Shown here: positions 39,001-63,000 of the stretch, piece by piece
How the letters are laid out: each line of letters opens with the position of its first letter
Numbering within the stretch: position 1 is the stretch's first letter
DNA from: Escherichia coli
Lineage (GTDB): Bacteria > Pseudomonadota > Gammaproteobacteria > Enterobacterales > Enterobacteriaceae
Length of the DNA: 64,000 bases
Reading direction: 5' to 3' (one strand)
Assembly: GCF_003991155.1 (NCBI RefSeq)
Contig: NZ_CP031297.1
Made by a program: the position numbers

Positions 39001-42000
39001 CGGTCTCATGGCCTGATGTGAAGGCATACGCTGTACCTTGAACGCCAGAGACAAAATTAGGAGCTGACCCTAGGCGAGGCTCCACGATTTTCACCTTAAC
39101 GGAACACATGTCAGCTACCTTACTTTGTCCGTTCACCCACGTCGGGCAACCCCATTCATTCTTGTAGAACTGATAGGTTAGGCGACCGTCTTTGTCATAC
39201 AGAAGCGTGAAATTGGCACCCAAATCAGTCAGCGCTGACTCAATGGAAACTTTCACATGTGAAAGAAATTTGGCCTGAGCGTCTGCCGGTGAAACTGCTT
39301 CGTTAGCAGGCATCCAAGCGATCAAGCTATTGCGAGCGCCATGCTGTTTGGGGCCGATAGCCCAGTTCGCAAGGTTGACCAAGCCACCTTGCCAGTCGGT
39401 CATTCCGAGCTGAGGGGACATGTAGCCAGACAGCACGTAGGCTGCCCCAAACGTTTTGGTGTCGGTCAGACGCTCCAGCTTGTCACGCGGAACAGAAGCG
39501 TCTTGGATGCCTGTTACCAGGCCACCGGCCTCCGCGATGTTGTAAGCGCGACTGTGATTGGTTTTGTACGCTGTGGGTTCGTAACTGCTGGTGGATGCAC
39601 AGCCAGATAGAGCTGCTACAGCCAGAGCCACGGTGGTGATTAAAGCCTTTTTCATGTTGTTCTCCGTTCTTACCTGAGTTGAATCTGATTTACTTCGATA
39701 ATATCACAGCATCAAAAAATGCAACCATAAAAGACAAAAAAAAGCCCCTCGGGCGAGGGGCAAAGGTTTGGGCTGGGTTATGCTGCTTTTGTTTTCTCGG
39801 CTTCGTCTGCGATTTCCTTGTCGCCGGTTGCAGATTCCGGAGCGGCTTCGGCCACTTCACCTTCTTTGCCTTTGCTGTGGGCGGAAATGCGAGCCCGTTT
39901 CTCGATGCCGATGATTCGACCGGCCAGCTTGATGAGGCGTTGCTGCCATTGGTAAGTGGCGTCGGTGCGCTGCTTGCTGGTCAGTACGGTGTTCAGCCAG
40001 AGAGTGTCAACGATCCCCATCAGGGTATCCAGTTTGCGGATCAGGTGTGCAAACTGAGCAACCTGAGGAGAGTTGATCTCGATGGTGTATTCATTCGGGT
40101 TGGTGTAGCCGGGCATCATGTCGATGCCGTTGTCTTCCATCAGCTTGTTGAGCTGGGCGGTAGCTTTGTCCAGGTCTTCGGAGACCTTGGAAATGTGTTC
40201 CAGGATGACGGTTTCAACCTGGTCGATTTCGTCCTGCTCACCGATGATGCGAAGGATCACGTCGATGGAGAACAGGGAGTTGGAAACTCGCTCAAAGCTG
40301 CGTTCCATGACGCGCTGAGCTTGGAGGCTGTTTACTTTCAGAACTTGCTTGAAAACAGGGCGAGAGTAGTGGTTGCTGCGGTCGTTGTTTGTGTCCAGTG
40401 CTACTTGTGCTTCTGCCATTAGAGATACTCCTAAATTTGAGGTACAGATAAACGCACTGGAAAGGATAAATGCGGTCAATCTGTAACCTGACCTCTCGAA
40501 GTGCCCAAAATGGACAGTTACAGCGTTTTCTGTTTAGCAAAGGTGAGCTATATTTGAATCATCTTAGTCGCTCTGCGGCTATAGGTGAGATAGCTGGTCT
40601 CCGAAAACAAACAGCATCTAGTCTTATGCCGTATGGCATTACTTAACCCCAAGCCGGGGGCTTCTCCCGGTTTTCGGGTGTTGCCCCTGTTTTTTTTACA
40701 TAGGAGCAACACCATGCACATCATCACTTTCATTGTAGTTCTGCTTGCATCTCTGGGCGCACTGTACGTAGGCGCGAAGGCATTTGCTTTTTCCTTCATC
40801 GTTCTCGCTAAAGTGTTCCAGCGTATCGGTTTGTTCCTTTGGAACAAATTCGCAGTTCCTGCAATGCGGTCTGTACAGGCCGTCATCAAAGAACGTGCTG
40901 CCAAGGCTGAACAAGCCAAAGCAGTCGTTGAACCTGAGGTAACTCAAGTTCAAGAAGTCGCTAAACAAGAACCTGACTGGGATTATCTCGAAATCCCGAC
41001 TTACCTTCGTAAGGGCAAGGAACTTGTTTGGTAATAACTGTCGCTGAGTAATCTTCGACACTTTCAAACCCATCGGGGCAACCATACCCCGACGGGGATG
41101 TTGCCCCTTTTTGCTTAGGAGCAACATCATGGAAATCGCTATCATCGCTTTGTGTATCCCTGCTGGTTGGGCAATCTCTCGTCCTTTCGTGAGAATCGCT
41201 GAATCGTTCGGTTACTGCTGATAGTCAACGCAAAGGGAGGGGGCAACCCCTCTCTTTCTGGTCAAGCCTCTGTGGCTTGTCCTCAAAGTCTTCTGGTGTC
41301 AGTTGGCTTTGACGACAAGCTACAGGGGGAATGTCGAATGCAACAGAATCTTCATGTTTACGACGATCACGCAGGCATCATCTATCTGGCTGATGGACGC
41401 GAGGTGAAATTTGATCCGAAACTGTATTCCAGCTCCTACCAGGCGCACAGTGAAGCAGTGAAGTGGGCCAAAGAAACCGGGGTCATTGGTCAAAACGACG
41501 ATGTGGTGATGTTCGTCCATTGAGGGAGTAGCCTCCAGGAGAGGCTACTCTCCTCGCTCCTTAAAAGTCTTCTTACTCATGGTGAATACCATCAGTAAGC
41601 AGATTTTGTTCTCTTCGGAGAGCGAAAAGTGCGATAGCTGGTCGCCAAAAACAAACAGCAAATTAACGTTAATTTACTAGCCCAACCGGGCGCATCCGCC
41701 CGGTTCGGGACGTGGTGCGCCTGTCACAATAGGAGCGCACCTATGTCTCAATACTCTCAATTCTCAGTAAGCAAGGTTTTCGGTATGCCCAGCATTCCGG
41801 AGAAGGTAACGGCCATCGGCTACGCTGACGGTTCAAACCCTTTCATCCCTGCCACTGATACCAACTACGTTTTCCGCAAAGAGTTTCTGCGAGAGGTCTT
41901 GGCCTATCTCAAAGAGCCTGGCGGTGACGCATTGTTCGTAACCGGCCCTACCGGGTCTGGCAAAACCTCAGGTATCACCGAGATCGCTGGTCGTCTCAAC

Positions 42001-60000: not shown

Positions 60001-63000
60001 GGATAAGTCAATGGAGACGTTGCTTGCCACGGACCCTGAAAGGCATGGCTATATGTCGGGGCTGAACCGCATCCAGCGCTACTTGGCAAAACGCCGGTAC
60101 GCATGGGAAGACCGCCATCCCGTAGGTCGAACGATTTACGAGGGCGGATACATCAAAATACAGCCGGACGTTTACAGTCCTGTTTTCCTAGAACGATTGC
60201 TTCATGTCTGTTGCAGCATGGACTACATGGAGCAAAAGAGAGCTGATGAGCTGGCATACAAGCTGGCTACTGGTCAAGCAGAGGATAACGACTGGAACCG
60301 TCGAATGGCAGAGCCACAATTCCGGATCATATCGGAAGAGGCTTTAGTCCATATCGACTTCATGTGGGCCTTCCATCATTTCAATGATAAGCCTTTCCAT
60401 GCCCTGGAGATTTACCACAGGGTTTGGTCGATGGGTGATCTGGACTTGCTGGAAGACGAGCCGCAGTGTGAAACCGTTCCTCAGTCACCAATTCCGAAGC
60501 CATTGTGGTTGAAGGTTGGTCGCTGGGGCGATGGTTCGCTTTCTGATGGCTTGGCCGATCCGTTAGCGGAAATGGCTTACTTTGACGGCGGGGATGACCC
60601 GTTGGCAGCGCAAGTGATCAATACCGCAGACGGAAAGAGAAGGGTGGTTTGCTTCGCAGAAGATGATGAAGTGAAAGTCGATCCCGACTCCGCTGCGTTC
60701 ATCATCTGGAACGAATACCCGCGACTAAGGGAGTCTGTACTAAAGGGACATTATACGCCCGGTAGTGCAGCGCAGTTCTACCTTCGGTTCGGAGCAATCC
60801 AGCTTGCGAAAGGAAAAGGCGCTTTGTATCACCGTATGATGCAAAGAGGTCAAACCTACCACCAGATGGGCCTTACAGGGCTACAGACGATGGAAGGAAT
60901 CCAACAGCGCAAGGATGTCAAAGTGCTTAGCGATGCTAAGTACAAAGATCTGGTGAAGCGAAAAATCAAGGGAAGACTGGCAACGGTACGCTGGTGGGTC
61001 AACTTGCACTTAACGTTCAAGTACCATCTGCACCACCGTACTCCGACGGGGTTGTTCATCGAGAAGCAACTTGACCAGGAAGCAATGGAAGAACAGAAAC
61101 GGCATCAGGAGCGATGGTTTAACTACGTGACTGACGCGATGCTTTGTTACTCCAGCGCATTCTGTATGAGCGTCATGGAAGGGCGAGAGGGGAGCGGAAA
61201 CGCCAACATTCGTCGTTACATGGCCGCGACCAGAAGGAAGGCTTATACGGCCCTCTGCGAGCTCTTGGACAATACTGACGCCCAGTGGATGAATGATGTG
61301 GTCCAGAGTGCCGTAGGGCAGTATGAGGCGATACAGGCAGCCCTAACCGAAGGTTCCGCGCTTGCTATCTATCTCGACTGGATCAACCTACTGTCAAAAC
61401 GCCATCCAGCCTCTTTGGAGCGACATGTCAGAACGATGATCAAGGCGGTTCAACGCTTACATCGCCGCGACGACACAGAGTTGCAAAGAGGACAGCAAGG
61501 CTTGTCCTTGGCCGCATAAAAAGCCCTCCTTCGGGAGGGCTTTTTCTTTTGCACCCCAAAAGGGCAATTACAGCGTTTTACCCTTTTAGGTGGCTGTCAT
61601 ACTCTTTGTTCATTGTCAGCGCTTGCTGGCTATAACGGTAGCTGGCCCAAAACAGCAATAACCTAACCCCTCGGGAGGAAACCCCTCCTGGGTTCTCTCC
61701 CACAAACAAAGGAGAGAAGCATGAGCCTAGACAAGTTAAGTCGGCTGGTGGACCAACAACGAAAGATCCAGGATGAAATCGACAATGAAATCATTCTGGC
61801 CGTCAAAGAGGTGTTGGCTACAAACTCAGTCGGTTTAGCCCGTGAGCTTGTTGGGGGTGTCCCGCAAGATCATCCATTCCATCCGTTTTTACTCGCTATA
61901 GCTAAGCAGCTTGACCCGAGATAACTAAGTAACCCAACCGGGTACACCAAGGCCCGGTCGGCTTTGGTGTACCTCCAACCAATTTTGGAGGCACTATGTC
62001 TAATTCAAATTTCGGCTTTCTAGCTCTGGCCTTGCGCCAACGCCTGATCAAACGCTGGTCACTGATGCACTCTGTTCAACCGGAGTCTGTGTTGGAACAC
62101 AGCGCTGTTGTTACCCTGCTTTCCTACCTGGCTGGCAATATTGCCATTCAGCAAGGGAAGTCGGTGGATCTGGCAGTCATGCTTGCTCATGCTTCGTTGC
62201 ATGATGCAGCCGAGGTTCTCTGTTCGGATGTTGTAACACCGGTCAAGAAAGCAAACGCTGTTTTGCAGCGTGAGTTTGAACGACTGGAAAAGGCCGCAGA
62301 GGACAAACTCATCCAGACTCTTCCCGAAGAACTCCAGGATGCAGTCGCCATAGCCTTCGCTCCCGGTGGCTATGAACAATCACTGGTTAAGGCCTGTGAT
62401 ACCTACTCCGCTTACATCAAGTGCAAACTTGAGGTGGCCGCAGGTAATGGCCTTGAGTTCCAGGATGCTCTCAGCAAAATGGAACGTGTTGTTGCTCAGG
62501 TGAAATCGGACTTCCCGGAAATCGACGCTCTGGACAAATGGTTTGGTAACGGACTCGGCCATTCAGTAGATAAACTGCTGGCAGGGGGTAACGATGACTA
62601 ATCCAATCCCTGGCGACATCAAGATTAAGGACTTTGGCCGCGACCGGAAATTCCGTTCGGTTGATGAGCTTCAAAGCACTTTGTCAGAACAGTACAAAGG
62701 TCAGCATGTCAGCATCGTTTACCCTGCAAAGCCCAGCGGTTTACTCCGCACGGTTTTTGTCAGTGTCGATGATGCTGGTGGCGTGAATCGAACCTATGGG
62801 GACCAGTCTCCTGTCGATTTTTCTGCCATCAAAGATGACCTGTATGTACCAAGTGACCTGTAGGAGAGCACTAGCTATGGTGGTGATCATCGTAAACACA
62901 GGACACTATGAGTTTATCGGCCTTGGTGAGACCCACGGACAAGCCACAGAAGGGCTTTTGAAACGCTGGGACGAACACTGCGAACGTAATCCGGATGCTG

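Follow-up and report, generated by a model that had tools for sequence, protein, structure and literature searches.

IncC plasmids carry dispersed repeats that were named rptIa-f in 2020, and Bet/Exo have been found to repair Cas3 breaks by annealing between copies of them (Roy et al., 2020, NAR 48:8815, PMC7498323). The longest, rptIb (155 bp), lies upstream of vcrx089, and a 32-bp segment of it is reported to be identical in SGI1. In that paper the intergenic repeats are described only as DNA homologies: a covarying stem, loop-tail pairing and a position within transcripts are not mentioned there, and no distribution beyond the Gammaproteobacteria is given. Here we analysed a stretch of 64,000 nucleotides from Escherichia coli (contig NZ_CP031297.1; the whole stretch is called the window below). 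It is IncC plasmid backbone, and between 40000 and 62000 many IncC (A/C2) plasmids match it at 100% identity. Its right-hand part holds seven repeats built around the heptamer TAGCTGG, and these are real copies of a small folded RNA leader. What was known are the IncC DNA repeats, rptI; what is new is the structured RNA leader, which lies outside Rfam. An earlier reading of the window sequence (the original prediction) knew of no description of this module. For the DNA repeats this was not quite right; the fold, the covariation and the wide distribution are not described by Roy et al.

The seven repeats are the rptI loci. The published deletions of 23,702, 9,268 and 10,310 bp equal the spacings between copies 2 and 8, 2 and 4, and 1 and 4 in pVCR94, and by this mapping copy 2 is rptIb; the core, GTGCGATAGCTGGTCGCCAAAAACAAACAGCA, is exactly 32 nt. 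The further deletions of 14,003 and 14,076 bp do not map to TAGCTGG copies and probably use the downstream hairpin part of rptIb. According to the same paper SXT/R391 elements lack rptI, whereas in our searches Providencia, Rheinheimera and other chromosomes have copies of the core downstream of SetCD-type boxes. No follow-up literature on rptI was found, and the tail and loop strings returned only unrelated primers from the text of 8 million papers. In the window, copies 2 and 3 share more than 100 bp of identical sequence (41595-41700 and 46430-46535), while in pVCR94 the near-identical pair is copies 2 and 8 (pVCR94 89817-89920). As the near-identical pairs differ between IncC lineages, the repeats appear to have been homogenised differently, which is expected if Bet/Exo recombines them.

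All copies share a composite motif: a covarying stem of 4-6 bp (S1), the loop TAGCTGG, the complementary stem arm, 2-3 variable nucleotides and AAAYAARCAGCA. Six copies are strong and one (copy 7) is degenerate. All seven lie on the + strand, each 82-123 nt 5' of an annotated start codon, with loops starting at 40591, 41635, 46470, 50302, 54716, 58498 and 61639. The heptamer occurs 12 times in the window against 6.3 expected, and is therefore unremarkable by itself. The tail AAACAAACAGCA has six exact matches in the window, all of them 14 nt after a loop start (0.38 expected, allowing up to one mismatch). When a covariance model trained on unrelated genomes is run over the window, six copies reach 51.6-57.4 bits (E about 1e-13), while copy 7 reaches 15.3 bits (E 0.02). 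Across the first 40 kb and on the minus strand it gives no comparable match. The composite motif and the model together bear out the seven same-strand copies with an invariant loop that had been predicted, and an eighth lies just past the window, at pVCR94 position 89857. The parts of pVCR94 examined outside the cluster (1-35 kb, 88-120 kb) hold no copy.

To see how widespread the motif is, we scanned one genome per species for exact matches to TAGCTGG-N7-AAACAAACAGCA, which leaves the stem arms free. This returned at least 120 stretches in gamma- and betaproteobacterial genomes, where about 4 are expected for 19 fixed bases. The free arms pair consistently. At least three contiguous arm pairs are present in 121 of 124 distinct instances, and in 93 distinct rows the inner four pairs of S1 show 93-100% pairing, each drawing on as many as four pair types. 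Double changes are seen at 5/5 pairs, with 24 distinct 4-bp arm pairs overall, and the covariation score is 0.65, compared with 0.20 for shuffled and 0.10-0.16 for slid partners. In the window the arms are as originally described, with the exception of copy 7, whose CGG/CCC is not a full stem but two G-C pairs and a C-C mismatch.

The inner four pairs include nine G-T and no A-C combinations, indicating that the fold belongs to the sense strand. The sense fold of the P2+P3 segment is also more stable than its antisense in 122/153 instances (p=1e-17). Wobble bias and sense-strand stability together exclude a duplex protein site and a template-strand structure, in agreement with the hairpin in a single strand that had been proposed. 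The length of the unit (about 33 nt plus the upstream hairpin P2), the loop-tail pairing and the fixed distance to the 5' end in three promoter classes favour RNA over non-template DNA, and we are confident, short of certainty, that the module acts as RNA in the sense transcript.

The loop and tail were fixed in the first scan, so a second sample was chosen through a protein. We fetched 80 metagenome loci via homologues (36-100% identity) of the neighbouring DUF3799 nuclease and searched them with a looser pattern of a 4-bp stem, a loop TA..... and a tail AAA.AA. This gave 97 distinct matches, 96 of them on the gene strand, and at least one match in 59/80 loci. The loop is TAGCTGG in 92/97, and CAGC stands in register in 92/97. 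Loop positions G3-C4-U5-G6 are complementary to C8-A9-G10-C11 of the tail, and this second helix (S2) is 98.3% paired, with a double change at 3/4 pairs: G6 changes to A together with C8 to U in locus L107, G3 to A together with C11 to U in locus L157, and a divergent pair of loci has C5-G9 (L197) versus U5-A9 (L199). Four single variants turn a loop-tail pair into G-U. RNAfold itself selects the GCUG:CAGC pairing in four window copies, and copy 7 retains it with a proportionally shorter linker despite its decayed S1. Together these pairings make up a compact H-type pseudoknot, in which S1 has 4-6 bp, the first loop 1-2 nt, S2 4 bp and the A-rich strand 9-10 nt. Two variant subfamilies were also seen. 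One (L197 at 6520, L199 at 1246) has the loop UAGAYGG and a tail ending in YCRGAG, its second helix seemingly shifted by one register; the other (copies of the L012, L079 and L088 type) has the tail UUCAUAAACAGCA, one nucleotide shorter.

A close known fold class is that of the preQ1-I riboswitches, represented by the Tte aptamer CUGGGUCGCAGUAACCCCAGUUAACAAAACAAGG (PMC7038950). A 5-bp covarying first stem, a first loop of 1-2 nt, a second stem of 3-4 bp between the loop and the 3' end of an A-rich, AACAAA-type tail, and an overall length of about 33 nt are shared with that class. The motif differs in its loop of 7 nt rather than 10-12 nt, in having no Rfam preQ1 match (E<=5) and no queuosine genes nearby, and in having no expression platform that overlaps the 3' strand of P2. 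Luteovirus frameshift pseudoknots such as that of BWYV have the same size and layout, with an A-rich third loop. Unlike those, the motif is not placed in a coding frame behind a slippery site, and unlike either class it is present in several copies per element, upstream of unrelated genes. Against Rfam 15 as a whole (including PreQ1, radC, STAXI and the self-cleaving ribozymes) the window gave no match at gathering thresholds and the copies none at E<=5, and ARAGORN found no tRNA-like punctuation. Several candidates were rejected by eye: a sigma54 site (GG-N-TTGC spacing off by one, GC not conserved), hammerhead and twister cores (absent) and a sigma-dependent pause (no fitting -10-like element).

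Upstream of the core, nearly every instance has a hairpin of 8-12 bp (P2) whose 3' end lies 5-12 nt short of the loop. Covariation of P2 is weak within one orthologous subfamily (only two double-change pairs), and its support comes instead from 130 different hairpin sequences found at the same place (mean z -1.6). The module as a whole is found in three contexts. At 12 independent loci it follows AcaCD/SetCD-type boxes, with the box fixed at -87 to -91 from the loop. In Rhodocyclaceae and the plasmid pSTJ2 it stands at the equivalent distance behind sigma70-type promoters (TTGACA-N17-GATATC or TAGAAT). Within operons, it is preceded by a GC hairpin (T0), CUUUCC, a covarying hairpin (H1), GGAAAG and then an AU-rich linker conserved as R-N-A-U-U; in 30 diverse internal copies RNAalifold finds the CUUUCC/GGAAAG pairing (P1) invariant and eight covarying pairs in H1. 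The original prediction had noted this scaffold, a G/C hairpin with CTTTCC...GGAAAG, at copies 3, 5 and 6. It is real, is also present at copy 4 and is conserved in other elements. An R-N-W-U-U sequence follows GGAAAG within 12 nt in 44/53 copies, compared with a background of 12%, and its position relative to P2 is that of +1 in the promoter-proximal copies.

The 5' boundary of the module can be compared with mapped transcripts. The published start site of vcrx087 lies 30-32 nt before loop 1 and that of vcrx114 27-29 nt before loop 7, so copies 1 and 7 are transcribed and sit inside 5' leaders, as had been supposed for four of the repeats. The distance from these sites to the beginning of P2 is 3-6 nt in copy 1 and 2-5 nt in copy 7, and in pSTJ2 the predicted start site is about 8 nt before P2. 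Promoter-linked modules thus begin 2-8 nt from +1, and the hairpin lies within a few nucleotides of the 5' end, as it does in 5'-terminal mRNA stabilisers. Downstream of the motif there is no such regularity: a terminator-like hairpin follows in only 22/153 instances (14%), and the Shine-Dalgarno sequence (SD) lies 60-100 nt from the motif behind independent stable hairpins, with the start codon 80-140 nt away and no consistent SD overlap. This argues against a classical riboswitch platform.

In pVCR94, all genes from vcrx087 to vcrx125 are expressed at about 0 in an acaCD mutant and at hundreds to thousands with AcaCD, and this stretch has AcaCD boxes only at vcrx087, vcrx098 and vcrx114 (Carraro et al., 2014). 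Four copies had been placed 60-130 nt downstream of an activator box. Only copies 1, 4 and 7 lie downstream of boxes validated by ChIP-exo, with box-to-loop distances of 94, 156 and 92 nt, which puts copies 1 and 7 in that range and copy 4 outside it; the box supposed at copy 6 is a box-like sequence without a published peak. The vcrx098 promoter gave 'no clear 5'-RACE signal' (Carraro et al., 2014), and is the sole AcaCD promoter here with a full internal-type module (T0-P1-H1) between box and motif. Transcription through internal copies had been assumed, and RT-PCR by Roy et al. (2020, PMC7498323) places vcrx087, vcrx089, bet and vcrx094 on one transcript, meaning that copies 2 and 3 are read through. 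Rockhopper calls eight multi-gene operons in vcrx087-125, and six of them (089, 094, 098, 107, 112 and 114) have their start exactly at a copy.

Canonical terminators directly upstream of the vcrx098 and vcrx114 AcaCD promoters split the cluster into units of about 10 kb, with equivalents in pVCR94. The first (49753-49790, + strand) has a 13-bp stem and a T run and appears to end the vcrx087 unit; the second, upstream of vcrx114, spans 61518-61545 plus a T run (to 61554) on the + strand. Published RNA-seq across the terminator after vcrx096 drops from 1372 to 56 in the complemented strain and from 646 to 308 in the wild type, although these data are noisy. The AcaCD boxes, with sequences as in Table S3 of Carraro et al. 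(2014), lie on the + strand at 40497-40525 (vcrx087) and 50146-50174 (vcrx098). That of vcrx114 (61547-61575, + strand) overlaps the 3' end of the terminator. The start sites fall at about 40559-40561 for vcrx087 (homology with pVCR94 65081-65083) and, likewise by homology, at about 61610-61612 for vcrx114, both on the + strand.

Two window copies are of the promoter-proximal type. Copy 1 (40560-40616, + strand; 53.6 bits) has P2 at 40565-40581 and an S1 of GAGA/TCTC that pairs 40587-40590 with 40598-40601 around the loop at 40591-40597; its tail spans 40605-40616, and GCTG at 40593-40596 pairs with CAGC at 40612-40615. Copy 7 (61615-61657, + strand; 15.3 bits) has P2 at 61615-61630, only 2-3 pairs in S1 and the loop at 61639-61645. 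Its mismatched arms and shortened tail (AAAACAGCA, 61649-61657) mark it as degenerate, and GCTG at 61641-61644 still pairs with CAGC at 61653-61656.

The other five copies, all on the + strand, carry the internal-type module. Copy 2 (41522-41660; 57.2 bits), upstream of vcrx089 in the hde operon, comprises a GC hairpin (41522-41555), a second hairpin (41564-41607), P2 (41608-41623), S1 (41631-41634 with 41642-41645), the loop (41635-41641) and the tail (41649-41660). In copy 3 (46381-46495), T0 (46381-46395) and H1 (46404-46426) precede the AU-rich linker; P1 (GCTTTCC/GGAAAGC) pairs 46396-46402 with 46428-46434, P2 spans 46440-46461, S1 pairs 46466-46469 with 46477-46480, and loop and tail lie at 46470-46476 and 46484-46495. 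Copy 4 (50213-50327; 57.4 bits) stands behind an AcaCD promoter, with T0 at 50213-50228, P1 at 50229-50239 with 50259-50269, H1 at 50241-50257 and P2 at 50272-50294, followed by S1 (50298-50301 with 50309-50312), loop (50302-50308) and tail (50316-50327). Copy 5 (54609-54741; 56.8 bits) has T0 at 54611-54625, P1 at 54626-54633 with 54674-54681, H1 at 54638-54669, P2 at 54686-54707, S1 at 54712-54715 with 54723-54726, the loop at 54716-54722 and the tail at 54730-54741. Copy 6 (58415-58523; 51.6 bits) has T0 at 58415-58437, P1 at 58438-58441 with 58470-58473, H1 at 58443-58468 and P2 at 58474-58488; its S1 (GCGG/CTGC, with one G-U) pairs 58494-58497 with 58505-58508, and loop and tail occupy 58498-58504 and 58512-58523.

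Hosts among the matches listed include Vibrio, Shewanella, Photorhabdus, Edwardsiella, Providencia, Marinobacterium, Alcanivorax and Azomonas, along with many Betaproteobacteria such as Sulfuritalea, Accumulibacter, Comamonas and Tepidimonas. The betaproteobacterial core occurs in one PLSDB plasmid only, indicating that its carriers there are mostly chromosomal integrative and conjugative elements (ICEs), and 5 matches in 2.9 million viral contigs indicate that it is not a phage trait. The sole annotated betaproteobacterial plasmid with the motif, pSTJ2 (NZ_AP018720.1), has seven copies. It encodes an activator of the FlhC family, an AcaB-family regulator, a MobH relaxase and MPF_F genes (TraW/TraU/TrbC/TraN), and its + strand cluster holds a PD-(D/E)XK nuclease, RecT, SSB, a Toprim primase, RNR, ArdC and RadC. 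MOB-suite calls pSTJ2 'non-mobilizable' despite its MobH relaxase and transfer genes, and a RAMP-superfamily CRISPR-associated gene is present as well. The motif is therefore a trait of MobH conjugative elements with FlhDC-type (AcaCD/SetCD-type) activators. The genes downstream of it encode a nuclease, SSB, RecT, an ATPase, a primase and unknown proteins.

Two further observations concern its distribution. The chromosome of E. coli AH02 (NZ_CP081701.1, about 859-871 kb) has one motif copy in an IncA/C fragment beside IS26, in a prophage region; the fragment holds yfbR, a toprim protein and an integrase. Motif contigs in metagenome-assembled genomes (MAGs) assigned to Bryobacterales, Anaerolineaceae, Hydrogenedentes, Bathyarchaeia and Planctomycetales (L007, L012, L052, L067, L077 and similar loci) are near-identical to betaproteobacterial ones, and these non-proteobacterial contigs likely reflect binning contamination or very recent transfer.

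The record matching the window annotates topoisomerase III, the MobH relaxase gene traI, traD and tra/MPF_F genes up to traN (35949-38756). Downstream of traN follow three minus-strand genes and then, from 40714 on, the long + strand cluster of vcrx087, an AAA_5/CbbQ ATPase gene, ssb, bet, exo, genes for DUF3150, VWA, methylase and PAPS-reductase-like proteins, yfbR and others. Behind the copies lie establishment and defence-evasion functions (anti-restriction, SSB, Bet/RecT, exonuclease, primase, methylases). Matches to sigma70-like promoters are rare on both strands of 44001-64000 (2 seen, 14.4 +/- 3.6 in shuffles), consistent with a cluster that is silent without AcaCD. Nearly every cluster gene has a long AACCC...GGGTT hairpin upstream (40640-40713, 41690-41742, 63721-63803 and most intergenic gaps between 40.7 and 64 kb), followed by a hairpin that pairs the SD with an upstream anti-SD. 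This suggests a general translational masking that is independent of the TAGCTGG motif. Just past the window end, directly 3' of copy 8 (pVCR94 89960-90106), lies vcrx120, an open reading frame of 48 amino acids (MNKFQDFKLVYRQGGRR...). It is missing from the RefSeq annotation, is the top expressed cluster gene in published RNA-seq and is conserved in Marinobacterium loci.

What the leader does is less clear than what it is. The layout of the internal copies, the operon-caller boundaries and the missing vcrx098 start site together suggest mRNA punctuation, with an RNA module marking and protecting the 5' ends of segments in long transcripts; this is the reading we prefer, though we hold it tentatively. 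The module would mark the 5' end of each sub-unit of activator-dependent polycistronic transcripts. The long transcript would read through T0, an RNase E-type activity would cleave in the AU-rich linker, and T0-P1-H1 would protect the new 3' end. P2 and the pseudoknot, with the A-rich strand lying along S1, would shield the new 5' end, and in promoter-proximal copies the primary one, from 5'-end-dependent decay and scanning, and poorly translated segments would stay alive. The invariance of loop and tail might then reflect either a tertiary fold or a conserved binding partner. The closest parallels are 5' stabilisers and intercistronic modules such as those of ompA, papBA, puf and the T4 gene 32 leaders, which share the hairpin a few nucleotides from the 5' end and, at the internal copies, the order of 3' hairpin, AU-rich linker and 5' structure. 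Those elements are idiosyncratic to one mRNA each, whereas this module is conserved with an invariant sequence and recurs 7-8 times in each element and in two classes of Proteobacteria.

Several points weigh against punctuation. Cleavage is deduced only from the consensus-like AU-rich linker and the operon-caller boundaries, and P2 alone could be sufficient as a 5' stabiliser. The invariance of loop and tail from Vibrio to Rhodocyclales fits a specific partner (protein, RNA polymerase or ligand) at least as well, and is the weakest point of a pure stabiliser model. The predicted loop-tail helix rests on only three compensatory events; the single variants L014 and L011 each break a loop-tail pair, and C4-G10 is broken in the divergent L197/L199 subfamily. 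The tra operons of the same plasmids also lack the motif, but they are tightly packed and presumably well translated, which fits a punctuation model.

The two main rivals also act at the RNA level, and we consider both of them doubtful. If the module controls elongation, the nascent pseudoknot would modify RNA polymerase to cross hairpins and untranslated gaps without pausing and without Rho-dependent or T0 termination, either directly (as with HK022 put and the eps-associated RNA) or via a factor (nut/N, the bipartite conAn of Gram-positive conjugation operons), and the internal copies would re-establish the modification. With lambda nut, put, the eps-associated RNA and conAn the motif shares the structured promoter-proximal leader of very long mobile-element operons and the terminator-like hairpins inside them. 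Its fixed position near promoters, the units of 10-11 kb with untranslated gaps of about 200 nt exactly at the copies, the T0 read-through in the RT-PCR of PMC7498323, and the strict dependence on three AcaCD promoters all speak for such a role. The depletion of sigma70-like promoters does so too, and it matches the terminator-plus-antiterminator design of conjugation operons outlined in the abstract of PMC8955417; invariant unpaired bases across Beta- and Gammaproteobacteria would suit RNA polymerase itself as partner. Against it, the canonical terminators right before the vcrx098 and vcrx114 promoters appear to be respected (with the noise in the RNA-seq noted above), which speaks against a resistance to intrinsic terminators; a processive modification needs no reloading every 1-5 kb or repetition after internal hairpins; and the T0 hairpins, with their poor U-tracts, may be no terminators at all. 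The nut analogy of the original prediction is not supported: boxA (GCUCUUWA) occurs within -80 to +100 in 0/153 instances, and there is no boxB-type loop, partner protein or similarity in sequence or model. Pfam searches of the 20 unknown cluster proteins found no RNA-binding, NusG, FinO/ProQ, Hfq or CsrA-type domain. N/put-style processive antitermination is hard to reconcile with the canonical terminators and with a repeat every 1-5 kb, and what may remain is an anti-Rho or anti-pausing role. In the other reading, the 33-nt pseudoknot is a sensor that gates the establishment regulon. As a new riboswitch-like aptamer it would bind a small ligand (the preQ1-I/SAM-II size class), or as an operator an element protein such as SSB or RecT (compare the T4 gene 32 operator), coupling translation or decay to a signal such as free single-stranded DNA (ssDNA) after entry. 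A covarying stem with invariant loop and tail is the typical aptamer pattern, the architecture and A-rich tail are close to the Tte preQ1-I aptamer described above, and SSB (39), RecT (33) and the PD-(D/E)XK nuclease (31) are the commonest neighbours among 121 loci. In SXT, bet/exo are reportedly under strong translational control, and Ssb is reported to be inhibitory. The SD-sequestering hairpins before the cluster start codons, also described by Roy et al. (2020, PMC7498323), point the same way. However, no expression platform is evident, with the SD so distant and terminator-like hairpins so few; a loop of 7 nt offers little space in which to form a ligand pocket; the Rfam preQ1 model finds nothing; the downstream genes are functionally heterogeneous; and OB-fold SSBs are not sequence-specific.

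The remaining alternatives act on DNA and, taken together, seem unlikely. That rptI works as DNA, as dispersed homologies for Bet/Exo single-strand annealing or module shuffling, perhaps with hairpins that pause Exo in a Chi-like manner, seems improbable. The deletions that match copy spacings, the co-occurrence of the motif with recT/bet, exonuclease and ssb across Beta- and Gammaproteobacteria, and the placement of copies in leaders, such that recombinants retain a functional leader, are in its favour. Yet annealing needs identity, while the arms differ with compensation within one plasmid; it needs neither a fixed distance to start site and start codon nor loop-tail complementarity; the wobble asymmetry implies that one strand folds; and annealing does not account for a loop and tail that stay the same between elements with about 50% protein identity. 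The best reading of recombination is that it follows from having repeated leaders. The ops-like alternative suggested by the original prediction, in which a hairpin forms in the non-template DNA while the elongation complex is paused and brings in RfaH or a different NusG paralogue, is very improbable. The likeness is partial: GGCGGTAG and G(A/G)TAGC, on the non-template strand in the leader of long operons, with GGCGGTAGCTGG (which matches the ops consensus GGCGGTAGnnTG save for T11, here G) in 21/153 instances and GCGGTAGC in copy 6. The full consensus occurs in 0/153 instances, position 11 being always G, and G5 is A in 28/153 and in 5/8 IncC copies. The hairpin geometry also differs: the equivalent of position 3 covaries not with G8 but with the 3' arm on the far side of the 7-nt loop (there is no C3:G8 mini-hairpin). 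The conserved unit exceeds the length of non-template strand that is exposed in a transcription bubble, as known from RfaH-ops structures. Searching six-frame open reading frames of pVCR94 (1-35 kb, 60-120 kb), the window and 120 carrier loci with phmmer and E. coli RfaH and NusG as queries, we found no RfaH/NusG homologue at E<=10; this covers element-encoded proteins only, and host RfaH lay outside the search. We therefore reject membership of the ops/RfaH family. An ssDNA signal in conjugation is just as improbable, whether as a site on the transferred strand at which the element's Toprim primase primes or as an Frpo-like ssDNA promoter. All copies do lie on one strand, a Zn-ribbon/Toprim primase gene is nearby in 19 loci, the genes are of typical 'early' function, and the loop contains CTG, the start trinucleotide of DnaG. 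But an Frpo-type structure needs the template strand, and here wobbles and folding energy favour the sense strand. Priming explains neither the fixed spacing to the starts of three promoter classes nor the confinement of the copies to one 25-kb cluster far from oriT.

IncC plasmids, SXT/R391 and SGI1 are main vehicles of multidrug resistance, and vcrx089-093 and their neighbours defeat recipient restriction and CRISPR and set host range. From Vibrio and the Enterobacterales to the Rhodocyclales, a near-invariant module heads every block of these genes, offering a single handle on establishment gene expression as an antisense, CRISPRi or small-molecule target, as well as a compact sequence tag by which this conjugative-element superfamily can be recognised in genomic and metagenomic data. 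The module is also well enough supported to be entered as new in databases of RNA families. The published rptI 'repair repeats' can be reinterpreted as repeated RNA leaders, with recombination as a side effect. Should the sensor reading be true, productive expression of the defence-evasion and establishment regulon would be limited to the right physiological state, such as the time directly following entry into a new host, and this would cover IncC/IncA, SXT/R391-like ICEs, probably SGI1 and many betaproteobacterial ICEs.

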